Below, one piece after another: positions 3,120 through 16,757 of a DNA stretch of 43,154 bases; positions within the stretch are counted from its first letter, which is position 1; each line of letters begins with the position of its first letter. A program made the translations under genes and the position numbers. Source of the DNA: Bernardetia sp. Lineage in GTDB: Bacteria > Bacteroidota > Bacteroidia > Cytophagales > Bernardetiaceae. The stretch lies in assembly GCA_020630575.1 (NCBI GenBank), contig JAHDBD010000016.1:1-43154 (forward strand). Direction: 5' to 3'. The notes beneath the pieces were generated by a model. It ran no database searches. It worked only from the letters and a program-made list of their open reading frames with translations, and was not told where the DNA came from.

Positions 3120-3569
3120 ATGGCAACTTATCAAGAAGATACTTCTTATACCTCAATGGACAGAGATTCTAAATTTGAATCTGAAGAAACGGCACAAGCA
3201 AAACTTAATCAATTGGATTCTGATGAAGTACAATCCCGACCAGCAGGTCAAGCACCTTCATTTATTATGCGTGTTATGTTAACAAGCATGGTTGTATTTT
3301 TGGTCGCTGTAGGTTTAGAAGTTTTTGTTATGCACTCTGTTATGGATAATCCAGATGTAAACTTAGCTCGTAGAATAGCTGTATTAGCTATTGGTAGTGC
3401 GCTTTTAGGTGGCGCAGTTGGAATGATCACAGGTTTTGCATACGTAATGAAGAAAGAATTCAAATTTAAAAGCGCAATGACTGTAATGGGAGTTGTACTC
3501 GTAATTTTAATGGTCGGAATCGCTATTTTGGGAGATAACCCAATTTTAAATCAATATATGACTAATTAA
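3120..3569 (+). CDS. Hypothetical small membrane protein (acidic N-terminus, 3-4 TM)
   Basis: 149 aa ORF with several hydrophobic helices (MVVFLVAVGLEVFV, IAVLAIGSALLGGAVGMITGF, VMGVVLVILMVGIAILG). Convergent with the HlyD-family gene. No recognisable family. Confidence 0.45.
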   Translation: MATYQEDTSYTSMDRDSKFESEETAQAKLNQLDSDEVQSRPAGQAPSFIMRVMLTSMVVFLVAVGLEVFVMHSVMDNPDVNLARRIAVLAIGSALLGGAVGMITGFAYVMKKEFKFKSAMTVMGVVLVILMVGIAILGDNPILNQYMTN

Positions 3570-3686: not shown

Positions 3687-5018
3687 TTATTCAAAGGCTT
3701 CCACGGAATAGACTGTCTGTTCCAAAAATTTATCTAGCAGACTTCTTTCCTCTAAAACTATTTCTACTGTTCCATAAATTTCATTTTTAGAATCTAAATC
3801 TACTTCGACCTTTCTGTTGGTTTGTAAACCATTGTCTAATTTTAGTTGGACAGAATATTTATTTTCTTGTGGCGCAAGGCTTATCTGTGCAACTTCTGCT
3901 TCTATCCAACCATAACGAGCAAAAGGATAGGCTTCTAATTTTATTTTTGCTTTATTGGCTTCTTTTCCCTCCTTGAGCTTAGAAATATGTTTTGAGTCTA
4001 CTTTTGTATAGGCATAAATAGCATTTTTTTGAGGAATAACAGAAATAATCTCTTTATCCATACCAACTGATTGATACAAATTAAGAGGATTAAAGAAATT
4101 AACTTTACCTTCTATCGGACTAATAATCAAATAAGAGGTTTTCCAATCTTCTAACATTTTCTTTAGAGTTGCAAAACTAGTTCGTAATTGTTGCTTATAC
4201 TTAAATGCTTGCTCTTGATAAGCAATAGAAACTTCTACAAGCTGTTGATTGAGCTGACTAACTCTCATTTGGGCATTTAGATTTGCTTCTTTATTTTGCA
4301 AAAAACTGCTCTCTTTGTTTAGAAATGCACTCTTTGTTTGTAAAAACTCTTGTTTGGCAATTGCTTCACTTTTGTACAATAATGAATCCGTAATATATTT
4401 TTGTTTGCTCAACTCATAGTCTCTTTCTTGAAGTTCATATTTTTCTTGTAAAATAACTCTTAACGAATTTTGAATTTCTATTTCTGAACGAATAGCAGCT
4501 TGTTTTTGAGCATGCGAGTTAGTTTTAGAAAATAACTGATAATCTAAAATATTATTTTTTAGTCTTTCGTAATCTAGTTGTAGATTTCCCAAATTTGTAA
4601 AGAAAGGAATTTCATTTTCCTGAAAAAAATCTACACTTTCAAATACTGAATTTTGACTAGAAAGCGTGTCTAAATAATCTTCTAACTTTTTGGCTTCTTT
4701 CCAATCTGTTGTGCTTTCCAAGACTAATAAAAGCTCATTTTCTTTTACCTCTTGACTATGTGCTGCATTTATAAAAATAATACGGCTATTAATCTTTGGA
4801 AACAAACTTGCTTTTGCTTGATTTGCATATAGTGTTACTTCTGAAGTCGATAATTCAGGGTAACGTATAAAGTGAGAAACGACAAGCATTAGAAGCAAAA
4901 CACCAAAGATGATTGTAATACCTGAACGCATAAAAAAGCCTTGTGGACTTGTCAATAATTCTTGTGTTTCTTCTGAATAAGAGCGAAAAACCTCTTCTCT
5001 TTCTATATTATCTTCCAT
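3687..5018 (-). CDS. HlyD-family secretion adaptor (membrane fusion protein) of bacteriocin/peptide export type
   Basis: 443 aa. Single N-terminal TM (ITIIFGVLLLMLVVSHFI), a long coiled-coil central region and a C-terminal beta domain. This matches the HlyD/CvaA/LcnD-like architecture. Directly downstream of the C39-like/VKOR/Trx gene. Confidence 0.7.
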   Translation of the reverse strand: MEDNIEREEVFRSYSEETQELLTSPQGFFMRSGITIIFGVLLLMLVVSHFIRYPELSTSEVTLYANQAKASLFPKINSRIIFINAAHSQEVKENELLLVLESTTDWKEAKKLEDYLDTLSSQNSVFESVDFFQENEIPFFTNLGNLQLDYERLKNNILDYQLFSKTNSHAQKQAAIRSEIEIQNSLRVILQEKYELQERDYELSKQKYITDSLLYKSEAIAKQEFLQTKSAFLNKESSFLQNKEANLNAQMRVSQLNQQLVEVSIAYQEQAFKYKQQLRTSFATLKKMLEDWKTSYLIISPIEGKVNFFNPLNLYQSVGMDKEIISVIPQKNAIYAYTKVDSKHISKLKEGKEANKAKIKLEAYPFARYGWIEAEVAQISLAPQENKYSVQLKLDNGLQTNRKVEVDLDSKNEIYGTVEIVLEERSLLDKFLEQTVYSVEAFE

Positions 5019-5083: not shown

Positions 5084-6766
5084 TTAGTTTTCTTGCAAAG
5101 ATAGTTCTTCTTCTGGATTTTCTTCTGACTCATCCATTTCACTAGCCAAATGAACTAAAAAATACTCTAAATCAGTAACTGTATATTTTTCTGGTAATAA
5201 ATAACCATTTACAATAAAAGCAGGTGTAAAAGTAATTCCTGTCTGATTTATCCAAGTATAATGCTCTGAAATGATACTTTCTTTTTCTTTATCAGAATAA
5301 GATGTTGGAAGATTTGATAACATTTCTGAAATTTGTTTGTAATCTTCACTTGTTTGATTGGCAGTCAGATGGCACATAGTTGTAGTAAAATAATTGCCAA
5401 AATCTTCTCTCAATTTTTGTAAATCTTTCTTTGCGCTAATACAAGGTGGACAAGTAGGGCGACTAATGACAACTAAAGAAACTTTACTCTCCTCTTCTTC
5501 TTCATCTAGTTCGGCTGAAATAGTATTTCCTTCTACAAAATGGGTTGGAACTTCGCTTATATCTACTTTTTTATTTTGATGAAGAAGTGTTTTGAAAACC
5601 TCATAATCATACTTAAAAGAACGTAGATTCTTAGTTTCGTTATTAGAAGAGTTATATTTTTCAAGAACTGGTTTTAAAATATTCCAAATAAATATAGGCA
5701 ACAGGAATGAAAAAACAGCTATTGCTAAAATTGAAAAAACAGAATACAAAGTAAAAGTAGAAGATAAAATTTCATCTTGAAAGCTAAATAAATATATTCC
5801 CCCTAACACAGATTCTACAAACAAAACTGCCATTACAGAAACACAAAGCGAACACCATTCTTTAAGAACAAATTTCTGATAATATAAAGACACAACAACA
5901 GCAAAAATACCCAAAACAGAAATTAAACTTTGAAAAATAAATCCCCAAGAATTACCAATCAGTAAAAATAAAAATGCCCCAAAGAAATAATAAACTCCTA
6001 ATTCAGAAAAGGTAAACCATTTTTTGATTGAATCTATTTTACTGGTATTTTCTTGTTTTATGTCAGCACAAGAAGATGATTTTCCGAAGGCAGTACAGGC
6101 TTTTTTGAAAACTGCGTTATTTTTAAAAATTTCTCCAGAAAGTAAGATAGCACTGATTACAAATCCTATAGTATGTAAAATATAAAAGGAAACTTCAAGG
6201 ATAGACTTTGTGACTTGTTGATTTGTAGTAAAAAAAGTTTTTCCAACTAAAAATAAAAAAGAAATACCTACTAAAACTTGAATGGTATTTTTTATAGTGT
6301 CAGAAAACTGTTGGTTCTTTTGTGCTTTTTTGTGAGCAGAGTAATTTGGTTCTGCTGCATTTTCATTTTTATCTAATAACAGTGTATAACCTGTCCATGA
6401 TTTTTCAAATTCTTCTATTTCAACTATCTGTTTCTCTGAATTGACATTAATCAAGACTACTTCATTGTCTCTAACTTCGTCTAAAATAGAATAATCCGTG
6501 TGTGTTCTTCCATTTTCATCATTATGAGAAGCCAAAACAAGAGCAGGCAAAAGAATTTCTGATAAATGCTCTTTTCCAATCTGAACAGCTAAAGACTCTA
6601 TTTTATAATGTGCTAAGAGTGTAGTAAGATCACTTAATGTTTGAGCATCATTATATTTTGCTGTCAGTTTTTGTAGATAAGTGAAAGTATAAGAAATTTC
6701 AAATTTATCTAATAAAATACTTACGATAGTTTTCATATTATATCTATTTTCTTTTAAAGTTACCAA
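5084..6766 (-). CDS. Tri-domain protein: N-terminal peptidase C39-like domain (no catalytic Cys) + VKOR membrane domain + C-terminal thioredoxin-like CPPC domain
   Basis: 560 aa. N-terminal ~150 aa align with the C39 domain of ComA/PCAT proteins (LPALVLASH...THTDYSILDEV..., conserved WTG motif) but contain no cysteine. The central region has 5-6 TM helices with the VKOR loop Cys pair (CTAFGKSSSC) and a CXXC at the start of a TM helix (CSLC). The C-terminus has a thioredoxin fold with CPPC (VVISRPTCPPCISAKKDL). Confidence 0.8.
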   Translation of the reverse strand: MVTLKENRYNMKTIVSILLDKFEISYTFTYLQKLTAKYNDAQTLSDLTTLLAHYKIESLAVQIGKEHLSEILLPALVLASHNDENGRTHTDYSILDEVRDNEVVLINVNSEKQIVEIEEFEKSWTGYTLLLDKNENAAEPNYSAHKKAQKNQQFSDTIKNTIQVLVGISFLFLVGKTFFTTNQQVTKSILEVSFYILHTIGFVISAILLSGEIFKNNAVFKKACTAFGKSSSCADIKQENTSKIDSIKKWFTFSELGVYYFFGAFLFLLIGNSWGFIFQSLISVLGIFAVVVSLYYQKFVLKEWCSLCVSVMAVLFVESVLGGIYLFSFQDEILSSTFTLYSVFSILAIAVFSFLLPIFIWNILKPVLEKYNSSNNETKNLRSFKYDYEVFKTLLHQNKKVDISEVPTHFVEGNTISAELDEEEEESKVSLVVISRPTCPPCISAKKDLQKLREDFGNYFTTTMCHLTANQTSEDYKQISEMLSNLPTSYSDKEKESIISEHYTWINQTGITFTPAFIVNGYLLPEKYTVTDLEYFLVHLASEMDESEENPEEELSLQEN

Positions 6767-6771
6767 AAAAA

Positions 6772-6817
6772 TAGCGATAGAGTCTTTTGAATATCATCAA
6801 AACTTATTCTATCGCTA
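6772..6817 (-). promoter_or_regulatory. Intercistronic stem-loop between the precursor-peptide gene and the C39-like/VKOR gene
   Basis: Inverted repeat TAGCGATAGAGTCTTTTGA ... TCAAAACTTATTCTATCGCTA forms a 10-bp plus 6-bp stem. It lies in the 78-bp gap between the peptide stop (6845) and the next start (6766). Confidence 0.4.
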
Positions 6818-6844: not shown

Positions 6845-7009
6845 TTCTTATACGTTACAATACTCAGGGAATTGATTTGGGTTACACATAATGTAAGGAG
6901 GACAACAACATTCAGGTAATGTGTTGCATCTGAAACTACCACCATTTACTTTAGTTGCTTTTTCTTGAGAGATAGCAAATTTTCCAAATTTCTTTTTCAA
7001 AGATTTCAT
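6845..7009 (-). CDS. Unannotated 54-aa precursor peptide with double-glycine leader and a 6-Cys core (bacteriocin/RiPP-like)
   Basis: Manual translation gives MKSLKKKFGKFAISQEKATKVNGG | SFRCNTLPECCCPPYIMCNPNQFPEYCNV*. Below the 60-aa ORF-track cutoff. The leader ends in GG. The 5'UTR and leader are paralogous to the ORF at 9998..10192. Confidence 0.6.
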
Positions 7010-7293
7010 AAAAATTGAATTTAATAGGTATAATTAAAATAATTTATCAAGATTACTTACTTATACATTTTTAATAATTACCAAGTAAGTTTGACACTGT
7101 AAATATCAATAAAAACAAAGCAAATTTCCAAATAAAAATTACATTTATTTTTACTAAAATATTAAACAACTGAATTACAGACATTTACAAAGTGTTAATT
7201 TTTAAAAACACAAATTATTTGATATTGTAATTAAAACCCAATATGTTTCTATTTTTAAAACGCTATAATTTATGATAATTCTTTCTTTTTAAT

Positions 7294-7389
7294 CTAAATA
7301 GCTAAAGACTCTACTTTATAGTATGTAAAAAGTAATACAATATTACTTAAAGTTTGAGCTTGATTGGATTTTTTAATAAGCTTTGACAA
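7294..7389 (-). pseudogene. Truncated remnant of a second C39-like/VKOR gene (N-terminal domain fragment)
   Basis: The minus-strand translation ...KLIKKSNQAQTLSNIVLLFTYYKVESLAI* aligns with residues ~32-61 (KLTAKYNDAQTLSDLTTLLAHYKIESLAVQ) of the 5084..6766 protein. There is ~75% nucleotide identity to 6580..6665. No start codon and a premature stop. Confidence 0.45.
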
Positions 7390-7393
7390 AATT

Positions 7394-7433
7394 AGGCGTC
7401 TATAAGACGCCTAATTTGTCTAATAAAAATGTA
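7394..7433 (-). terminator. Terminator hairpin plus conserved 24-bp 3'UTR element downstream of the 473-aa thioredoxin-domain gene
   Basis: Hairpin AGGCGTC-TATAA-GACGCCT. It is followed by GCCTAATTTGTCTAATAAAAATGT, which is near-identical to 9186..9209. Confidence 0.5.
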
Positions 7434-7441
7434 CTTTTATT

Positions 7442-8812
7442 TTATAATTGATTGATTTGAGTTTCCAATGCTTTATATTGTCTCTCATCAAAAGTCTCAT
7501 CTTTTACTTCAAAAGCTTTTTCTAGCATTTTTTGTGCTTTTTGTTTTTCCTTATTGTGAAAGAAAACTTTTGCAGCAGTAAAATAGTCAGAATAAGAAGC
7601 AAGATATTCTTTCTCTAAAACTTGTTTCCAAATAGTGCTTAGGTATGATATTACTTCTTCTTGAACTTCCATTTTCAAATATTTTGAGGTATTATCATTT
7701 AAAAAATATATAGGCATTTGACTATCATTTCTAAAATTTTCTTCTATATTTTTTTGTAGATTATCAATTTGTCCATATTTCAAAAGATATTTACCAAACT
7801 TTGCACTCTCATTAATTTGAAAATAAAAGTTCATAGCTTCTCTATTTGTGATGAAAGTAACAAAACTATGAGAAATGGGACGTTCAAAACTTCTTTCTTT
7901 GCTGAGTAATTCTAATTTTTCAGAAAATAGTTCGTATTTTGAAATAGCCTTTTCAAAGTTTGTCATATCTTCCTCTGATATATTTTTTATTTCTTTAGTG
8001 TGACTAATAATTTTATCAATAGCATTAAAAAAAAGTATCTCTTCCATATAATTTTCATACGCCATTATGCTATCTCCATAGTTTTCTTCAAATTTATCTA
8101 TATGATCAAGATAAAAATTATATGTTTTATCGTTTCTGGTTTGTATTAATCTTTCTAATAAAAACTCAACTTGTTGCTTAGAATATTCGTTTTTTTCTTG
8201 CATACATTCTACAAATCTATCTTTTATTAAAATCATTTCTTTCTGTAGCTCATCTTCAGGAATAATACCCAAATATGTAATTACTAAATCTACATTACAA
8301 GGATTTTCAAAGTATTTTTGTTTTGCTCCTTTGTGTATAAGTTGATTTACTTCAGATTCTGATGAAAAAACTTTTCCTTTCTTCAAAGCCTGTCCATAAA
8401 TTAGTAGTTCATAGGCTGCTAAAGCACCTACATATTTAGATATCAGATTTCCCTCTCCATCTAGAAATAATAAAGTAGGAACGACTGAAATTTGATAATC
8501 TTTACTTATTTTTTTTCCTTTTTCTGTTTCTGTATTAATTTTGATATTCACAAAATTATTATTGAAATAGGCTGACAAAGTAGAATCTGTAAAAGTAAAT
8601 TTATCCATTTCTTTGCAAGGCTTACACCAATTTGTATAAGTATCTATAAAAATCAGTTTATTTTCTTTTTTAGCTTTGTCTTTAGCTTCTTCAAAGGAAA
8701 GGTATTCGAATAATATTCTTTTGCCTTGTTTAAGGTTTAAACTGTTATCTTGAGCTAGAACGGAAAAAGAAATACAAATAAATAACAGAATATAGATTAA
8801 TTTAGATTTCAT
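7442..8812 (-). CDS. Secreted thioredoxin-fold protein (WCKPCK active site) with long C-terminal helical extension
   Basis: Probable start at the internal Met, giving signal peptide MKSKLIYILLFICISFSVLAQ. The ORF track extends to 8863. Thioredoxin-like region FIDTYTNWCKPCKEMDKF. The remaining ~330 aa has no assigned family. Confidence 0.65.
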   Translation of the reverse strand: MKSKLIYILLFICISFSVLAQDNSLNLKQGKRILFEYLSFEEAKDKAKKENKLIFIDTYTNWCKPCKEMDKFTFTDSTLSAYFNNNFVNIKINTETEKGKKISKDYQISVVPTLLFLDGEGNLISKYVGALAAYELLIYGQALKKGKVFSSESEVNQLIHKGAKQKYFENPCNVDLVITYLGIIPEDELQKEMILIKDRFVECMQEKNEYSKQQVEFLLERLIQTRNDKTYNFYLDHIDKFEENYGDSIMAYENYMEEILFFNAIDKIISHTKEIKNISEEDMTNFEKAISKYELFSEKLELLSKERSFERPISHSFVTFITNREAMNFYFQINESAKFGKYLLKYGQIDNLQKNIEENFRNDSQMPIYFLNDNTSKYLKMEVQEEVISYLSTIWKQVLEKEYLASYSDYFTAAKVFFHNKEKQKAQKMLEKAFEVKDETFDERQYKALETQINQL

Positions 8813-9225: not shown

Positions 9226-9915
9226 TTATTCCTCTAAAAGAGCAGTAATCTCATTTGTATATAAAGGAAAGTAATCATAAATGTGCTGTGAATAACCAGA
9301 AGTAATAAAACGAATAACTCCTTTTTTATCAATAAAATAGCTTTTAGGGGCAGCTTCTGTAAGATAATATTCTTTTAAAAAGTCTTTTGTAACATTTTTA
9401 AATTCCTTGCTGACTCTATCATCTTTATAATAACCATCACCATTCTTTCCAAGATAAGAAGCAGGAATAACTTTTACCTCATCGTTGTACTTTCCTTCTC
9501 TAAACTCTTTACCTTTTTTAGGGTTTTCTAGATATTTTTGTAAAGCTAAGAAATCTTCTGGGGTATCATGATGTGAAATCATCACAAAAACCACTTCTTT
9601 ACCTTTATAGTATTTTTCTAATTTATTTATAAAAGCTATCTCACGCATACACGGACCACAAAGGCGAAACATAGTAGTAAATAAAACTACTTTGCCTTTT
9701 AAATCAGATAACTGCACAGAATCTCCTTTTAGAGTTCTGAATTTAAAATTAGTAGCTTGTGTATCTAGCAATGTATCCATCTGTTCTTTACATTGTTTGC
9801 CTAAAGATGTTTTATAATAACTTTCTTTTGTCAGAACCTCTAAAGTAGTGGTATCTTGAGCTAACGAATGAAAACAAATAAAAAATAATAAGAAAGCAAA
9901 AATATTTTTTTTCAT
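9226..9915 (-). CDS. Secreted TlpA/redoxin-like thiol-disulfide oxidoreductase (CGPC)
   Basis: 229 aa with signal peptide MKKNIFAFLLFFICFHSLAQ. Thioredoxin-fold active site VVLFTTMFRLCGPCMREI. Immediately downstream of precursor peptide B. Confidence 0.7.
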   Translation of the reverse strand: MKKNIFAFLLFFICFHSLAQDTTTLEVLTKESYYKTSLGKQCKEQMDTLLDTQATNFKFRTLKGDSVQLSDLKGKVVLFTTMFRLCGPCMREIAFINKLEKYYKGKEVVFVMISHHDTPEDFLALQKYLENPKKGKEFREGKYNDEVKVIPASYLGKNGDGYYKDDRVSKEFKNVTKDFLKEYYLTEAAPKSYFIDKKGVIRFITSGYSQHIYDYFPLYTNEITALLEE

Positions 9916-9997: not shown

Positions 9998-10192
9998 TTA
10001 AACAGCAGTACAATATCCACCATCTGTATCTGCAAGTGCTTGCAAATCATCCATATTTTCGGCTGCAATAAGCCAATCTGTTCCACTTCCATCTGAGTTT
10101 TGAGTACAAACAGCCATGATGCCACCCTTAACTTTAGCCAATTTCTCAGTAGAAACAGCAAACTTTCCAAATTTTTTCTTTAACGAGTTCAT
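9998..10192 (-). CDS. 64-aa precursor peptide with double-glycine leader and a 2-Cys core
   Basis: MNSLKKKFGKFAVSTEKLAKVKGG | IMAVCTQNSDGSGTDWLIAAENMDDLQALADTDGGYCTAV. The leader is ~80% identical to the peptide at 6845..7009. The 5'UTRs are also homologous (cataaaaat..atttaa...). Confidence 0.6.
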   Translation of the reverse strand: MNSLKKKFGKFAVSTEKLAKVKGGIMAVCTQNSDGSGTDWLIAAENMDDLQALADTDGGYCTAV

Positions 10193-10541: not shown

Positions 10542-13500
10542 TTAATCTTCTTTAGCTATTTTGAAAGTAAGTGTTTCACTTGGTGTAACTACATTGATAA
10601 AATACATTCCCGAAGCATACTTACTCAAATCCAAACGGATTTCTTGTTGAGATTCTTCTCTGGAAATAGATTTAGTGATGAGAGTTCTACCAATACCATC
10701 AGTAAGTGTAAGTGTGAAGGCATCTTTTAAGTTAGCAGCCAATTTCAAACGAACCTCAGAACTAGTTGGGTTTGGATAAACTAATGTACAACAATTTCCT
10801 TCTTCGTCATCAACACCTGTAACTGGTTCAGGCTTACGATAAAAGATACTATTTGAAGTAATAGCTTGACAACCTGTATCATAGGTAACTTTAGCTCTGT
10901 AACGCCCTGTTTCATTAAGAGCAAGTGAAAGAGAATTAGAAACACTAAGCATTTCACCATCTTTACTCCACTCCACTTCTGTAATTGTTCCAGTAGATGT
11001 TATTGTTGCGATATTTTCTTCTACTAGATTAATATGTGCTGTTGGAACATCTATTCTTTCAATACTTACTGAATCGGTAATGAATACACAACCAGTTCCT
11101 AAAGAAACCTCAACATGATACTTTCCTGAACTATTCACAGTAAAGTTTCTATTTTCAGAACCTATACGCAATCTATTTCCATTTCTAAATAAAGTATAAA
11201 TTGCATTTTCTACTTCTGAAACAGAAATTATAGCACCTTGATCTCCTGCACAAAACTGTTCTTTGTCAGCAGTAATACTAATGTCTGTTGGAAATGAAAT
11301 TACCTCTACATTAATTTGAGCTTCTTGAGTACATGTTTCTTTGCTTACTCGCAATGTATAAGTTCCTGCATTAGAAACTGTAATAGAAGAACTTGTTCCT
11401 ATTTCAGTATCATTAAACAACCATTGATAAGTCGCACCTTCTACTTCTAAAGCAGATAATTGACCTGTTTCACACAACAATACTTGGCTACCTTGTTCTA
11501 TTTGAGCAGGAGCAACTTGTCCTACTTTCACTTGAACAGTTGGAGATACCATTGAAACACACTCATTTTGTGTTATTCTTAATGAGTAATTTCCACTTCT
11601 AATAACTTGATAAGTTGGCGCATTGCTATTTTGTATAGCTACTCCATTTGAATACCAAGTATAAATCAAATCAGAAGAAGCATTTTGTGTATCTGCTTCT
11701 AAAGTCAATGTGTTTTCACAGGTTGAACGGACTAAATCTCCCAAAATAGTTGCTACTGGAATTTCTTTAACATCAATAGTAACAGCTAATCTGGTCTGAC
11801 TTTCATAACGAATACCATTTGCAGCAACATAATAGGTTTTTGCAGCAGTAAGGTTTTGAGTTTCGAAAGTATAAGAATCATCTTGAATAGGCTCAGTAGA
11901 TGTTTCAGACTCATACCAAAGAATACTTCTTGTTGTATGTGTACTATTTACTACAATCTTTCCTTTTCCACCTGCACAAGCATCTGTTTTGCTTATTAAT
12001 GTTGGAGCTTTAGGGTAAGTAACAGCATTGGTAGCAACTTCTTTTCTAGATACTGAATTGAATGCTTCTAGTCTATACCCATAAAAAGTATCTTCATTCA
12101 ATAAGCTATCATCATAAGAAAGAGTAGAAGCTGATAGAGTTGCCACCAAACGGTTTAATCTATATAACTTATACCCAGTTGCATTTGTAGCAGCTTGCCA
12201 AGTAAGGTCAATACGAGAAGTATCTATTGCAATAGCTTTAAATTGTGTAGGTGCAGATACTGATGGTATAGTATTTCCTCCTCCACCTGTTGGAGCAACT
12301 ACATTTATAAGGCTACTTAAATCGGTAAAAGCACTTCCATCATCATTTACTCGTATACTATACTCTCCAATTTCATCAAATTGTAAATCTGACCAAGTAA
12401 ATACTCCATTTATCATAGCACGACTTCCTAATCCAGAAGTAGCACTAAGAACTCCAGTTCCAGTTCCTCCGTCTCTTAACAATGTAATTGTTCTGGCTGC
12501 TCGGTCTATATTTCCATTTGCATCAAGTGCCTGTACGCTTACTACAAAGTTTGAGCTAACAGTTGCTGTTGTTGGTACAGTTGAAAAACCTAAACGTGTA
12601 GCCACCACCTCTAAAGTAAATGTATTTGATACTACATTAGCAGGGAAAGTAGATGCAAAAGAAGAAGAACTATTTGAAGTTTGCGCTCCATGTGCCACAC
12701 TAGGAATTTGGAATTGTAATACTCCTTCGTCTAAAACTCCTGTTGTATTCAAAAACACTTTTACAGTATAGTCTGTATTTGTTCCATTTGCTGTGCTTGC
12801 ATTACCAGCAGGAATAGTAAAACGAATTTGGTCTGCCGTAATAGTAGCTGTTGCAGTAATCTGAGTTCCTCCAGACCATAATTCTGCTCCTTGTAGTTGT
12901 GTTGTCCAGTCTGTTACTGTATTTGCAACTCCTTGTTTAATATCAACCTGAGTTACATCAGTAGGCAAAGCATCTGTTGTTGCTAAATCCTCTACTTTAA
13001 AAGAAAATACTTCTACTGCATTAGCTGATGTAGTAGCCAATGAAGATATTGAGACAGAAGCAGGCATTGTGGTTGGCGCAACAATTCGTGAGTCTGCATC
13101 TGCTGATGTAGTAATAGTAGTAAACTGCCAGTTAGCAGGTAAAACCCCTCCAAAACCTAAACTATTAGCTGTAAATGTACTGCTAGGAACATCCACAGAA
13201 TAAGTTGTAGAAGTTGCTAGTGCCGAAGGTAAAGTTACGGTTGCTGTATTTCCTGTAATTGTAGTATTAGTTGCAGAAACAGGAATTACAATTGGAGTAG
13301 CTCCTCCTGTAAGAGTAATAGAGCCTGTACCGATAGTAGGAACACGATTAAAAGTAAGAGCTAGTGATGTATTTGTATTTACATTAGTCGCATTATTTGC
13401 AGGCAAAAAGCTAACTAATTCAATAGGCTTTTCTCTTACAACTACATCATCAACAGCAAAACCATATCCCCAAGTATTCAAATCATCATAGTAAAAAGCA

Positions 13501-16500
13501 ATCCATACTTGAGGTTCGTTAGCATACGCATCTAAATCTAGGGTAACATCTTGCCAAACGCCAGATATAGATGCCATTGTATGAATAGTTGTCCAAGTAA
13601 TTCGGTCTGTACTTATACGAACCTCTCCTCTATCCGTTCGGAATACAGCTCTAAATGCCATTTCAATTTGAGAATAAGAGGAAAAATCAAACTTTGGACT
13701 AATCAACCACGATTTATAAGGTGCTCCACAACCTGGACTAGGACAAGCATCATCGTTTGCTGCTGCATATTGATTACCAGCAGGAACATCTGGGATGGTA
13801 AAGAAAGAACTTCCCAAGTTAGTTCCATACTGCCAAGTTCCAACTCCTGCTCCATCATTTATTATATCCCAACACTCTGCAGGATTTGGATTCTCAAAAT
13901 CTTCTGTATAAGGTAGTACAGTAACAGGAGGATTATTTTGAACTGTATGATTTGAAATAGCATTATTTGCTCCATTTGTATCAGTTGCTAGGTTAGCAGA
14001 TGCTGTAAGAACATAACTACCTCCTGCTGACATATCTACTGTAGTAGTAAATGTATAATCTAAACTAGCTGCACCATTTAAATCACTAGCTAAAACAAGA
14101 TTTTCATTTACTGCTGTTCCACCATTTACTGTGTAAGAAACTGGAATTGTTGTTCCACTTGGTATAGCAGAACAAGCTAAGTTTTTGATACGAATTGTAA
14201 TGGCTTCAGTAGCTGTTCTCAAATCACAACCTTGTGTTGGAGAAACGATTGCTGAAAGTTCTAAATCTATTCCTGAGCCAGCAGCAGGAGTAATAGAAAA
14301 CGCTACTGAACGCTGACTTGTAGCTCCTGTAGTTGTATTTCTTGCACGAATACTAAACCAAGTTTGTCCTGAAAGCCCTGTTGCAGTAAAAGTAGTAGTT
14401 GCACTTGTTCCTATTTGTGTATATACTCCAGTAGTAGTGTTCAACTGATAAACAATATACTCGTCTGCATCAGTTACTGCATTCCATTGTAAGATAGCTG
14501 AACCACTACAAGGCTGACCTGTAATACCAGTAGGAACACCAATAATTGAAAATGCTTCACTTGTTCCACTTAAAGATGGAGTTGCTGAAGAAACACGAAT
14601 CTTTGCTTCATTAGTCATTGCATTTGGAACAGTCCAACTCAAACGACGAGTGTTGGCAGCCACAGCACCATTAATAACTGTCCAAGTAGTTCCATTATCC
14701 AAAGAATACTCAACAGAAGTAGTTCCTGAAACTCCTTCCATATCCCATTGAATAAGTTCAGTAGCAGAAGGCGTTAAAGACATTCCAGCTGATGGATAAG
14801 TAACTTCAATATAAGGTTCTGTAACCGTCCAAGTCAATGAATATTGTTGGTTTGCTCCAGACGGAACAGCTGTTCCTTTTACTCTTAGTGTATATGTTCC
14901 TGTTGCTGGGGTAGGAATAGTTACTTGTTCGATAATATCTACATTGTTTACAGCTCTAATAGCTACATTATTCGGATTTGCACCATCTAATGTCCAAGGA
15001 AGCCAAGTATTTGTAGTTGGGTCTAATACTTCTAAATCCAAATTATTTATCAAAGCAGGATTTGCATTTGCTGCTGCTGCTGGGTCAGACCAACATAACA
15101 TTACTTTTAGTTCGTGTGTACCAGCAGGAACAGCAATAGTAACATCATTTTGTCCTGCTGTCGTAACTGTATTTATTGCATAATTATTTCCCTCTAATGC
15201 TTTAACAGCTTTCAAACCATTAATTCTACCAAAACCATATTTATAATCAGGCCCTGTATTTCCTAAATCATCAGCATTATTTGATAATACAGCCTTCATA
15301 AGTGAGGCAATAGGGTCTGCATTTGCATTTAATTGACGATAGCTTTGATAAAGTTGAGCTACTGTACCCGAAACACCTGGTGCTGCCATTGAAGTACCAC
15401 TATTTGCTCCATATCCATTACTTGGTAATGTAGAAACTACACCATTTCCGAATGCACTTACTTCAGGTTTGATACGTCCGTCTTCAAGAGGACCAAAACT
15501 ACTAAATGTAGTAATAACATCGTTATTTGTTAAAGCTCCTACTGTAATTGTGTTTTTGGCTGCTTTTCCTGTTGTAGAACCAAAACCACCTGCACAAGAA
15601 CTTTGAGAATTGCCTGATGAAAATACATGAACAAGTTGAGGATTATTATTTACTAATAAATCTTGTCCTCTATTATTACTACCATAAGGGTCGCCAGTAG
15701 CACAATTAGGTCCTCCTCCGTATGAATTTTGAGTAATTACAATACCAAAGTTAGTAATGGCATTTTGCATTTCAGTAGCAATATCTCCATTAAAGTTATG
15801 AGAATAAATTTGAGCATTAGGAGCCATTCCTGTATTTCTAGGATTTAGTAAACCTGCTCCTGCCATTGTTCCTGCTACGTGTGTTCCGTGGTCGCTATCT
15901 GATGTATTTTCTACAAGAGTACGTCTTCCACTAAAGTCTAAATGATTTGCAACGTTTCCTCCGTCCCAAATTCCAAGATTTACTCCTGAACCATCTAAAT
16001 TTCTAGCACCATAATTTAGGATAGCCGAACGGTGGGCTAATTTTCCATAATAATTTTCTTCTTTTGGAGGCTCTGGCAAAGATTCTACCCAAAGTACCCA
16101 AGGCAAATTAGCTACTTGCATAATTGCTGTTTGAGGTACACTTACTGTCAGAATACCTGATACTTTACTTTCATAGATTAGCTTTCCTCCCATGTTTATC
16201 ATAGCCATAGAAGTAAGCATGGGATTTACAGTATCAAAGGGAATAATATTCAATTCTACTTGATTAGGCTCAGAAATAGCCCATTCAGGAATATCTCCTT
16301 GTACTAATCTTGTTTGCGTTTTTTGATTAACAGACAGTTTTACAAACGCATGAATCTTAAAATCTGAAATAAGAGCTTCTAATTTATCATTAGAAATAGT
16401 AGAATTGATTTTTGCAGTATAGGATAAATCTGGCAAATACTGAATCAGTTCGATACCTTTACTTTTTAGATTTTGACGTTGTTGATGTGATGGAAGAGTA

Positions 16501-16757
16501 GTAAATTGTACTACTAAAAAATAATGATTTCCAAAAAGAGCATCTGAAAAACTACTCTTATCATTTTTAAACTGCTCAGTATTTGATGTATACTGTTCAA
16601 TAGATGATTTTAAACGTAAGGAAGGGGAAGAGCTTTGTGCAATTGCTGATTGCATTTGAGAACTCAATATACCTATTCCCAAAACAAGTAATAATACAAG
16701 TTTTTGATAAGAAATAATTGAGTTCTTTGAAGAAGAAAACGAATGTCTATGCTTCAT
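10542..16757 (-). CDS. Giant secreted subtilisin-like (S8) serine peptidase with multiple Ig/FN3-like domains and a T9SS C-terminal sorting domain
   Basis: 2071 aa with a signal peptide. S8 catalytic motifs: D (LGIWDGG), H (DSDHGTHVAGTMAG), S (GTSMAAPGVSGTVAQL). Long Thr/Ser/Gly-rich beta-domain repeats. The C-terminal ~80 aa (CCTLVYPNPTSSEVRLKL...MYFINVVTPSETLTFKIAKED) match the Por/T9SS CTD. Confidence 0.85.
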   Translation of the reverse strand: MKHRHSFSSSKNSIISYQKLVLLLVLGIGILSSQMQSAIAQSSSPSLRLKSSIEQYTSNTEQFKNDKSSFSDALFGNHYFLVVQFTTLPSHQQRQNLKSKGIELIQYLPDLSYTAKINSTISNDKLEALISDFKIHAFVKLSVNQKTQTRLVQGDIPEWAISEPNQVELNIIPFDTVNPMLTSMAMINMGGKLIYESKVSGILTVSVPQTAIMQVANLPWVLWVESLPEPPKEENYYGKLAHRSAILNYGARNLDGSGVNLGIWDGGNVANHLDFSGRRTLVENTSDSDHGTHVAGTMAGAGLLNPRNTGMAPNAQIYSHNFNGDIATEMQNAITNFGIVITQNSYGGGPNCATGDPYGSNNRGQDLLVNNNPQLVHVFSSGNSQSSCAGGFGSTTGKAAKNTITVGALTNNDVITTFSSFGPLEDGRIKPEVSAFGNGVVSTLPSNGYGANSGTSMAAPGVSGTVAQLYQSYRQLNANADPIASLMKAVLSNNADDLGNTGPDYKYGFGRINGLKAVKALEGNNYAINTVTTAGQNDVTIAVPAGTHELKVMLCWSDPAAAANANPALINNLDLEVLDPTTNTWLPWTLDGANPNNVAIRAVNNVDIIEQVTIPTPATGTYTLRVKGTAVPSGANQQYSLTWTVTEPYIEVTYPSAGMSLTPSATELIQWDMEGVSGTTSVEYSLDNGTTWTVINGAVAANTRRLSWTVPNAMTNEAKIRVSSATPSLSGTSEAFSIIGVPTGITGQPCSGSAILQWNAVTDADEYIVYQLNTTTGVYTQIGTSATTTFTATGLSGQTWFSIRARNTTTGATSQRSVAFSITPAAGSGIDLELSAIVSPTQGCDLRTATEAITIRIKNLACSAIPSGTTIPVSYTVNGGTAVNENLVLASDLNGAASLDYTFTTTVDMSAGGSYVLTASANLATDTNGANNAISNHTVQNNPPVTVLPYTEDFENPNPAECWDIINDGAGVGTWQYGTNLGSSFFTIPDVPAGNQYAAANDDACPSPGCGAPYKSWLISPKFDFSSYSQIEMAFRAVFRTDRGEVRISTDRITWTTIHTMASISGVWQDVTLDLDAYANEPQVWIAFYYDDLNTWGYGFAVDDVVVREKPIELVSFLPANNATNVNTNTSLALTFNRVPTIGTGSITLTGGATPIVIPVSATNTTITGNTATVTLPSALATSTTYSVDVPSSTFTANSLGFGGVLPANWQFTTITTSADADSRIVAPTTMPASVSISSLATTSANAVEVFSFKVEDLATTDALPTDVTQVDIKQGVANTVTDWTTQLQGAELWSGGTQITATATITADQIRFTIPAGNASTANGTNTDYTVKVFLNTTGVLDEGVLQFQIPSVAHGAQTSNSSSSFASTFPANVVSNTFTLEVVATRLGFSTVPTTATVSSNFVVSVQALDANGNIDRAARTITLLRDGGTGTGVLSATSGLGSRAMINGVFTWSDLQFDEIGEYSIRVNDDGSAFTDLSSLINVVAPTGGGGNTIPSVSAPTQFKAIAIDTSRIDLTWQAATNATGYKLYRLNRLVATLSASTLSYDDSLLNEDTFYGYRLEAFNSVSRKEVATNAVTYPKAPTLISKTDACAGGKGKIVVNSTHTTRSILWYESETSTEPIQDDSYTFETQNLTAAKTYYVAANGIRYESQTRLAVTIDVKEIPVATILGDLVRSTCENTLTLEADTQNASSDLIYTWYSNGVAIQNSNAPTYQVIRSGNYSLRITQNECVSMVSPTVQVKVGQVAPAQIEQGSQVLLCETGQLSALEVEGATYQWLFNDTEIGTSSSITVSNAGTYTLRVSKETCTQEAQINVEVISFPTDISITADKEQFCAGDQGAIISVSEVENAIYTLFRNGNRLRIGSENRNFTVNSSGKYHVEVSLGTGCVFITDSVSIERIDVPTAHINLVEENIATITSTGTITEVEWSKDGEMLSVSNSLSLALNETGRYRAKVTYDTGCQAITSNSIFYRKPEPVTGVDDEEGNCCTLVYPNPTSSEVRLKLAANLKDAFTLTLTDGIGRTLITKSISREESQQEIRLDLSKYASGMYFINVVTPSETLTFKIAKED

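Follow-up and report, generated by a model that had tools for sequence, protein, structure and literature searches.

We analyzed a stretch of DNA of 43,154 nucleotides from Bernardetia sp. (positions 1 to 43,154 of contig JAHDBD010000016.1), called the window below. On its minus strand lies a short gene for the precursor of a cysteine-rich peptide with a double-glycine (GG) leader. It is followed by a hairpin, by a gene in which a C39-like domain is fused to a vitamin K epoxide reductase (VKOR) and a DsbA-like domain, and by the gene of a HlyD-family adaptor. The positions of these features are as follows:

7010..7160, minus strand: conserved upstream region (promoter and/or 5′ untranslated region), about 150 nt alike in the window and in the related loci L006 and L002
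6848..7009, minus strand: precursor peptide gene including the stop codon, 53 aa, ATG-initiated, recognized by its translation and its homologs
6938..7009, minus strand: leader codons, 24 aa with GG at the end
6851..6937, minus strand: core codons, 29 aa with six Cys
6848..6850, minus strand: precursor stop codon
6765..6817, minus strand: terminator- or attenuator-like hairpin with a U-tract (UAGCGAUAGA...UCUAUCGCUA), between the precursor and oxidase genes
5084..6736, minus strand: fusion gene, 550 aa in four parts
3687..5018, minus strand: HlyD-family periplasmic adaptor, 443 aa, co-oriented and directly downstream of the fusion gene

The order precursor or precursors, hairpin, fusion gene and HlyD-like gene was found in all Bernardetia loci that we fetched, and synteny is conserved in at least eight related loci. 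Together, the precursors, the hairpin, the C39-like/VKOR/DsbA-like fusion and the HlyD-like adaptor form a conserved unit. The original prediction, made from the letters of the window, had placed an open reading frame (ORF) directly upstream of a VKOR/thioredoxin fusion with a stem-loop between the two, and the neighbourhood is as it described.

The precursor and its leader family

The predicted minus-strand frame exists, and its translation, MKSLKKKFGKFAISQEKATKVNGGSFRCNTLPECCCPPYIMCNPNQFPEYCNV, is exactly the one written before. Its length, given earlier as 54 aa, is 53 aa, and the gene ends at 6848; the former lower bound, 6845, lies 3 nt past the stop. The ATG at 7009 is the sole start of this frame, and the orthologs all begin with MKSLKKKF at the same point. 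At the GG the translation splits into the leader MKSLKKKFGKFAISQEKATKVNGG and the core SFRCNTLPECCCPPYIMCNPNQFPEYCNV. The six cysteines of the core (Cys28, 34, 35, 36, 42 and 51) have the spacing C-x5-CCC-x5-C-x8-C, so that the outer gaps of six and nine residues reported at first must be corrected to five and eight. The core contains only one Ser and one Thr, and its computed mass is 3384.37 Da in the reduced form and about 3378.3 Da with three disulfides. The identical protein is already present in a large protein collection as a nameless prediction. The Pfam scan of the precursor gave no match; the only NCBIfam match was NF038163, the bactofencin A leader, which covered leader residues 2-24 and scored 15.5 bits, well below its cut-off of 35.

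The leader ends with ...KVNGG and has a length within the range of GG-type leaders (about 15-30 aa, ending with GG, GA or GS). The GG stands in the same column in 12 of 12 aligned family members. Hydrophobic positions of the window leader are V-4, A-7 and I-12, and V, I or L can be read at -4 and -12 in the listed paralogs. In the LahT co-crystal the leader residues -4, -7 and -12 dock into the C39 groove (PMC6363468), and the window leader fits this groove of the C39 peptidase-bearing ABC transporters (PCATs).

Homologs were searched for among 5.8 billion proteins at the level of 90%-identity clusters. Ten further clusters with the same leader were found (11 in all), and the relatives, which belong to Bernardetia (Cytophagia), are named only hypothetical protein. 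The pattern MKSLKKKFGKFAISQ..K..(V/I)xGG is common to all of them, and the cores past the GG are fully divergent. A conserved leader with diverse cores in Bacteroidota relatives is what the original prediction had proposed to look for, and the frame, the start and the GG site, whose loss in homologs would have spoken against a gene, are kept in all relatives. Its GG-leader precursor with a Cys-rich core is therefore genuine, as seen from the translation and from homologs with a near-identical leader. Its other statement, that the peptide is not of the typical class II bacteriocin type, is right for the core, which is short, acidic and disulfide-dense, and wrong for the leader and export logic, which is that of class II bacteriocins or microcins.

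How much constraint acts on this short frame? We compared the proportions of non-synonymous (pN) and synonymous (pS) changes. In the leader pN was 0.03-0.08 vs pS of 0.21-0.56, with pN/pS of about 0.05-0.15. In the core pN was 0.12 vs pS of 0.84 in comparison with the closest ortholog (L063), and it reached 0.38-0.52 with more distant members, with the Cys scaffold retained. In the leader, and in the core compared with the closest ortholog, synonymous changes far exceed non-synonymous ones, which indicates constraint on the frame at the protein level, strong in the leader, and on this substitution pattern a spurious ORF was rejected. Judged from these comparisons, the precursor frame is a translated gene under selection, with a constrained leader and a core that diversifies while its Cys framework stays fixed. 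The DNA alignment of orthologous loci gives the same border: conservation extends through the leader codons, is lost sharply in the core-coding DNA once the GG codons are passed, and returns at the downstream hairpin. A tally of the listed sequences gave an even number of Cys for all 19 Bernardetia-family cores, as would be expected if every Cys were paired in a disulfide.

At this locus related genomes have from two to four tandem precursors. A second one was detected in the window by a leader-motif scan of all frames and by alignment:

9998..10192, minus strand: second same-leader precursor, 64 aa, consisting of MNSLKKKFGKFAVSTEKLAKVKGG and a 40-aa acidic core with two Cys

The exact protein is present in the protein collection. 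Its gene lies between a gene for an S8 protease with a type IX secretion system (T9SS) signal and a redoxin gene. By its sequence relationships the window peptide is a member of a family with one shared 24-aa GG leader and hypervariable cores of even Cys number.

The likeness to knottins or conotoxins suggested in the original prediction found no support. The window core shares with these peptides a length of about 30 residues and six Cys, but the framework differs, being C-CCC-C-C instead of the C-C-CC-C-C of the inhibitor cystine knot (ICK). The ICK connectivity (I-IV, II-V, III-VI) is not favoured either, as the pattern of co-loss in relatives hints at I-III instead. Here, two relatives with four Cys have lost the first Cys and the middle Cys of the triplet together, possibly in a single evolutionary event. 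This hints at a Cys28-Cys35 (I-III) bridge. The AlphaFold2 (AF2) model of the precursor, built on a 12-sequence alignment, had pLDDT of 53.6 and pTM of 0.16 and contained a short leader helix only.

The fusion gene and the exporter

The product of the fusion gene consists of four parts, all encoded on the minus strand:

6332..6736 (aa 1-135): C39-like domain without catalytic residues
aa 151-169: extra transmembrane helix, TM0
5684..6199 (aa 180-351): VKOR core and TM5
5087..5683 (aa 352-550): DsbA-like thioredoxin-fold domain with CPPC

It matched the Pfam families Peptidase_C39 (2e-12), VKOR (1e-8) and Thioredoxin_2/_4. Six hydrophobic segments were identified, namely TM0, the four VKOR helices and a fifth helix leading into the DsbA-like domain. 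Because the helices are six, a single side of the membrane should harbour the C39-like and DsbA-like domains together with the VKOR cysteines. We compiled a set of 58 fusion members sharing no more than 21-34% identity with the window protein. The redox cysteines, that is, the loop pair C214/C223, the CXXC of C295/C298 and the CPPC of C429/C432, are invariant in 58 of 58. Going by these residues, the fusion gene contains a complete VKOR-type disulfide-generating relay.

The C39-like domain is degenerate in the same set. Its catalytic Cys column has Cys in none of the 58 members and Asn in 35, the His is not conserved, and in 25 members the first 130 aa are free of Cys. A search of the PDB with a single fusion sequence gave no match, and a family profile was needed; it found PCAT1, LahT, ComA, the C39-like domain (CLD) of HlyB (3zua), DsbA-like structures and the Synechococcus VKOR. 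Like the HlyB CLD, the domain has no catalytic Cys, which suggests binding without cleavage, and it is natural to infer that it binds the leader and leaves it uncut. The HlyB CLD and the PCAT1 peptidase domain belong to the same domain family, but here the domain is fused to a VKOR/DsbA-like oxidase and not to an ABC transporter.

The adaptor matched NCBIfam TIGR01843 type_I_hlyD (6e-20, under the curated cut-off), and a HlyD-like gene follows the fusion gene in every Bernardetia locus. In two related loci, L001 and L009, a PCAT adjoins the unit, and its peptidase is intact (QxxxxCG...H...D). In the close relative Bernardetia sp. MNP-M8 (CP147012), whose fusion and adaptor are 94% and 99% identical to those of the window, an 89%-identical PCAT ortholog is located about 2.2 Mb from the peptide locus. 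This PCAT is flanked by an 82-aa same-leader precursor consisting of MKNLKKRFGKFAVSNKDANRISGG and a 6-Cys core (L066, 7393..7641, minus strand), an arrangement that ties the leader family to that exporter. By analogy with this genome, a distal PCAT is likely in the genome of the window too. The MNP-M8 PCAT is also flanked by the gene of a 612-aa AhpC/redoxin-domain protein.

The distribution of the fusion was examined with HMMER against 1.84 billion cluster representatives (50% clusters, E<=1e-10). At least 2054 fusion relatives were found, and the top 150 are almost all full-length, with about 500-560 aa. Those that have a name are annotated as 'vitamin K epoxide reductase family protein' or 'cysteine peptidase family C39 domain-containing protein'. 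A genome scan with a 10-sequence fusion alignment gave 52 loci in Chitinophagaceae, Cytophagales, Sphingobacteriales, Flavobacteriales, Saprospiraceae, a Paludibacteraceae metagenome-assembled genome (order Bacteroidales) and Balneolales. Neighbours were counted at the 39 non-Bernardetia loci with a full-length fusion, within 6 kb for PCAT and HlyD genes and within 1.5 kb for small ORFs. A PCAT was near the fusion in 20 of the 39 loci and a HlyD-like gene in 15; at least one same-strand, Cys-rich small ORF with a GG-type leader was present in 23. Six Cys is the mode among the flanking small ORFs (14 of 29), followed by eight (7 of 29), and the number is even in 25 of 29. The link between the peptide and the VKOR/thioredoxin gene, which had been proposed for the window, is thus real and general: GG-leader ORFs, mostly with six or eight Cys, accompany the fusion at 23 of the 39 Bacteroidota loci.

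Annotated plasmids of Parabacteroides distasonis and Emticicia oligotrophica agree with this, and their small genes are annotated as hypothetical. On the P. distasonis plasmid NZ_OY725766.1 (L061) the fusion is followed by a 59-aa 6-Cys peptide with an AGSG leader, a DUF4369 protein, a LanC-family protein, two glycosyltransferases and a PCAT. In some lineages the oxidase may go together with further kinds of peptide modification. On the E. oligotrophica plasmid pEMTOL01 (L062) the fusion gene has a histidine kinase and a LytTR regulator directly upstream, and the cluster also includes two small ORFs rich in Cys, a TlpA-family protein, a PCAT and HlyD. It looks like a quorum-regulated version of the system. 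We found no literature joining vitamin K epoxide reductase, C39 and bacteriocin. The window peptide is one instance of a phylum-wide association for which no description was found in the literature.

Maturation, membrane orientation and role

We consider it probable, from the sequence comparisons above, that the product of 6848..7009 is the precursor to a small, disulfide-rich peptide destined for export, which is addressed by its leader to the oxidase and then to a PCAT/HlyD exporter. The basic leader would be bound by the catalytically dead C39-like domain, much as GG leaders are bound by the peptidase domains of PCATs. Oxidation of the six core cysteines to three disulfides would then be the task of the tethered, CPPC-bearing DsbA-like domain, whose own re-oxidation would run through the loop Cys pair and the CXXC of the VKOR to the membrane quinone. 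Cleavage after Gly24 would fall to a genuine C39 ABC exporter (PCAT) whose gene lies in another part of the genome and which, together with the HlyD-like adaptor, would export the 29-aa product.

If so, then we can ask: On which side of the membrane would the disulfides be formed? In the short flanks and loops of the fusion, Lys and Arg amount on average to 8.4 on the side with the CLD flank, the CXXC loop and the DsbA flank vs 0.7 on the opposite side, and the sign of this bias is identical in 58 of 58 members. The solved, outward-facing Synechococcus VKOR has the reverse bias, with 9 away from the cysteines vs 2. In PCAT1 the module of peptidase (PEP) domain, linker and TM1 starts in the cytoplasm. 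It is to this module (residues 70-196; 4ry2, 6v9z) that the family profile aligns with E = 5e-12. No signal peptide was detected ahead of the 150-aa N-terminal domain. GG leaders exist only until a PCAT cleaves them, hence on the cytoplasmic side, and type I export in diderms is understood to go past the periplasm. Inward-facing VKORs are known only from Crenarchaea; engineered inverted VKOR/DsbB has given cytoplasmic disulfide formation in E. coli. On account of the charge bias, the homology with PCAT1 and the missing signal peptide we lean, though only slightly, towards an inward-facing fusion VKOR with its redox sites on the cytoplasmic face. A broader proposal seems about as likely as not, namely that the fusions are a widespread, natural and substrate-targeted counterpart in Bacteroidota of the engineered CyDisCo system, in which the dead C39 would recruit GG precursors at the cytoplasmic face of the membrane, the inward VKOR/DsbA-like part would oxidise them, and a PCAT would cleave and export the folded peptide.

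Several points weigh against these interpretations. The cytoplasm is a reducing compartment. The AF2 model of the fusion, built on 14 sequences, had pLDDT of 65 and pTM of 0.36, and its TM0 was weak (pLDDT of about 48). None of the curated NCBIfam leader models (TIGR01847, NF047798, TIGR04149 and others) reached its cut-off for the window peptide. No gene for a PCAT or for an outer-membrane channel was found in the 43-kb window, so that processing and export at this locus rest on relatives. Finally, a 2026 preprint states that all bacterial VKORs face outward, and plant and mammalian orthologs do so too.

The last point leads to an alternative that we regard as possible but rather doubtful, in which the peptide and the enzymes are the same and the VKOR is of the canonical outward kind, with periplasmic domains and oxidation during or after export. 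Every bacterial VKOR with an experimentally established orientation faces outward (the 2026 preprint; the Synechococcus structure), the periplasm is the normal oxidising compartment, two thioredoxin-fold proteins with signal peptides are encoded nearby in the window, and TM0 is not resolved in the AF2 model. However, the charge bias is reversed relative to the solved outward VKOR in 58 of 58 members, and the counterpart of the N-terminal module in PCAT1, by homology, is the PEP domain, which is cytoplasmic, with TM1. The N-terminal domain of 150 aa would need to get across the membrane with no signal peptide to help it. Moreover, a leader-binding domain in the periplasm would have no ligand, since PCATs remove GG leaders cytoplasmically, and PCAT/HlyD export in diderms is understood to skip the periplasm.

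As for the role of the exported peptide, an antagonistic, bacteriocin-like activity is the most likely, the peptide being one of a diversifying arsenal. The core is acidic, with an isoelectric point (pI) of about 4.5. In this it is unlike most class II bacteriocins, which are cationic, and the antimicrobial guess is weakened accordingly. The acidic core would suit a secreted signal, such as a quorum-sensing or inducer pheromone. ComC and BlpC are familiar examples of GG-leader pheromones that PCATs export, some relatives have weak, sub-threshold matches to the EntF induction-factor and BlpC models, and in Emticicia the histidine kinase and LytTR regulator stand directly upstream of the fusion. 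We nevertheless think a signal unlikely: there is no kinase/LytTR pair beside the window locus, and dense disulfides are atypical of known GG pheromones. Several paralogous hypervariable cores behind one leader at a single locus resemble the product of an arms race, whereas a signal needs a co-evolving receptor.

Could the cysteines serve another chemistry, as in lanthionine or other thioether bridges or in metal binding, which would place the peptide in a different class of RiPPs (peptides made by the ribosome and modified post-translationally)? The LanC-family gene and glycosyltransferases beside the P. distasonis plasmid fusion are in favour of this, and Bacteroidota GG leaders do serve radical SAM (rSAM) and lanthipeptide pathways too, with sub-threshold TIGR04149 and lant_leader matches. 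This version is very improbable for the window peptide. The Bernardetia unit has no LanB/LanC/LanM, rSAM or YcaO gene, and neither a dehydratase or cyclase (LanB/C, LanM, LanKC/L) nor an rSAM enzyme was found in the scanned window ORFs or in the Pfam-annotated Bernardetia loci. Besides, the core has a single Ser and a single Thr, the Cys number is even in all 19 family cores, and the adjoining enzyme has a complete and invariant disulfide relay.

That the frame is a chance ORF or a decaying pseudogene without product is hardly credible, in spite of its shortness and of decay elsewhere in the locus (the relic at 7240..7420; the truncated precursor and broken redoxin gene of L001), given the frame, start and GG site kept in all relatives, the low leader pN/pS and core pN cited above, and the conserved upstream region and downstream hairpin.

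If the preferred reading, an oxidised and exported GG-leader peptide, is true, a conserved and uncharacterised family of disulfide-dense peptides of marine Cytophagales joins the pool of class II bacteriocin-like peptides of Gram-negative bacteria. By way of the fusion gene one could conveniently mine such peptides, most of which across Bacteroidota are 'hypothetical' or have no annotation. A leader-recognition domain fused to a complete disulfide relay would be a new maturation logic and the first leader-guided disulfide 'RiPP-like' maturase, with the window peptide as one substrate of a hypervariable leader-addressed library. It would explain how type-I-exported peptides that bypass the periplasm acquire disulfides. 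If the inward orientation is true as well, this would be the first inward-facing bacterial VKOR, overturning the view that bacterial VKORs work only on the periplasmic side, and the enzyme could become a tool for making multi-disulfide peptides in the bacterial cytoplasm, with the 24-aa leader simply attached to them.

Related systems and neighbouring sequence

The system is of a known kind, a GG-leader bacteriocin-like peptide with a dedicated oxidoreductase; its newer element is the predicted inward-facing, leader-guided oxidase. The general peptide class is already recognised in annotation: NF047798 leader_Chryseo, NF047792 CCPGW and TIGR04149 GG_sam_targ_CFB have weak matches beside other fusions, one of them above the cut-off, while the window peptide matches none of the three.

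The closest characterised system is that of the bacteroidetocins (class IIf, Bacteroidales), which is similar in outline and does not include the window peptide as a member. They have in common a GG leader, an even number of Cys, an adjacent thiol oxidoreductase and, by prediction for the window, a C39 ABC exporter, and the bacteroidetocin oxidoreductase is required for full activity (Coyne et al. 2019, PMC6671954). However, the bacteroidetocin leader has 15 aa and no similarity to the 24-aa leader of the window, and the mature peptide has about 42 aa and 4 Cys vs 29 aa and 6 Cys. Since the bacteroidetocin papers give no domains for the oxidoreductase, we recovered the bacteroidetocin B region from gut metagenomes by means of the published cloning primer. 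The oxidoreductase in this region has 173 aa, is N-anchored and thioredoxin-like, and contains neither a VKOR nor a C39-like domain. The bacteroidetocin cluster has a protein with five transmembrane helices, which has no homolog in the window, and no adjacent HlyD gene, in contrast to the HlyD-like gene of the window. None of the four proteins of the bacteroidetocin B region has a relative in the window (the best peptide tblastn match had E = 2.9). Membership in the bacteroidetocins is ruled out by the peptide, the leader, the oxidoreductase and the cluster composition.

Class II microcins (e.g. microcin V with CvaAB-TolC) also have a GG leader, ABC-coupled cleavage and an adaptor, and sometimes one disulfide; no dedicated leader-recognising oxidase is known for class II microcins or bacteriocins. 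The window peptide shares with both groups the GG leader with hydrophobic -4, -7 and -12 positions (PMC6363468), but their cores are usually longer and cationic or hydrophobic, whereas the window core is short and acidic and its exporter is not in the locus. ApVKORi of Crenarchaea and CyDisCo are examples of a VKOR or DsbB facing the cytoplasm, and the fusion family has the matching charge bias, its orientation being a prediction. They are stand-alone, archaeal or engineered, and have general substrates, whereas the window enzyme would be a bacterial substrate-targeted fusion. Invariant leaders with hypervariable cores and a sharp onset of divergence at the cleavage site are known in prochlorosins and conotoxin precursors. 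The likeness is one of evolutionary logic only, as prochlorosins use thioether chemistry and conotoxins come from cone snails.

The hairpin between the precursor and fusion genes has a core at 6772..6817 and a T-run at 6765..6771. Its minimum free energy is -23.8 kcal/mol (z = -3.79 vs shuffles). The same stem stands after the last precursor gene in five of six Bernardetia loci, and L009 has a different hairpin with a T-run in the same place. A strict terminator scan found none, missing this hairpin because of its long loop, and it was direct folding that revealed it. The fusion ATG (6736) follows 29 bases beyond the hairpin and T-run. Between the T-run and this ATG lies TAACTTTA (6745..6765, minus strand), which differs at one position from TAnnTTTG, the -7 promoter motif of Bacteroidetes. 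A weak promoter of its own might serve the fusion gene besides read-through. Upstream of the precursor no exact match to a Bacteroidetes-type promoter (TTTG / TAnnTTTG) was seen by eye, and Rfam gave no family on the intergenic regions, with a single match at chance level.

Farther upstream, at 7240..7420 on the minus strand, there is a non-coding relic with about 73% identity to the 5′ end of the fusion gene, roughly its nt 30-180. It contains a 31-codon ORF (7294..7389) resembling ...AQTLSD..LL..YK.ESLA. The relic indicates a past duplication or recombination in the locus. Two genes of thioredoxin-fold proteins follow:

7442..8812, minus strand: signal-peptide thioredoxin-fold protein, 456 aa, DsbD-gamma/thioredoxin-like, with a long helical tail
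9226..9915, minus strand: signal-peptide TlpA/ResA-like redoxin, 229 aa

Both sit between the two precursor genes and are not found at the same place in L006 and L007. In L001 the redoxin gene is broken into two fragments, and a truncated precursor is also present. GC around the two genes is 0.23-0.28, slightly below that of the flanking genes. A role of these neighbours in immunity or isomerisation is possible. A 473-aa thioredoxin-like protein of the window was considered as an ortholog of the Emticicia TlpA-like gene and rejected, as the two have only the common thioredoxin fold.

Convergent with the HlyD-like gene, at 3120..3569 on the plus strand, lies the gene of a 149-aa multi-pass membrane protein, and all Bernardetia loci have a small gene (127-152 aa) at this position and in this orientation. 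It is a possible immunity gene, or just a conserved neighbour. On the other side, 10542..16757 (minus strand) codes for a 2071-aa subtilase (Peptidase_S8) with immunoglobulin-like domains and a T9SS C-terminal sorting domain. The subtilase gene borders the peptide locus in the window and in L006 and L007, and does not border it in L001 and L002.

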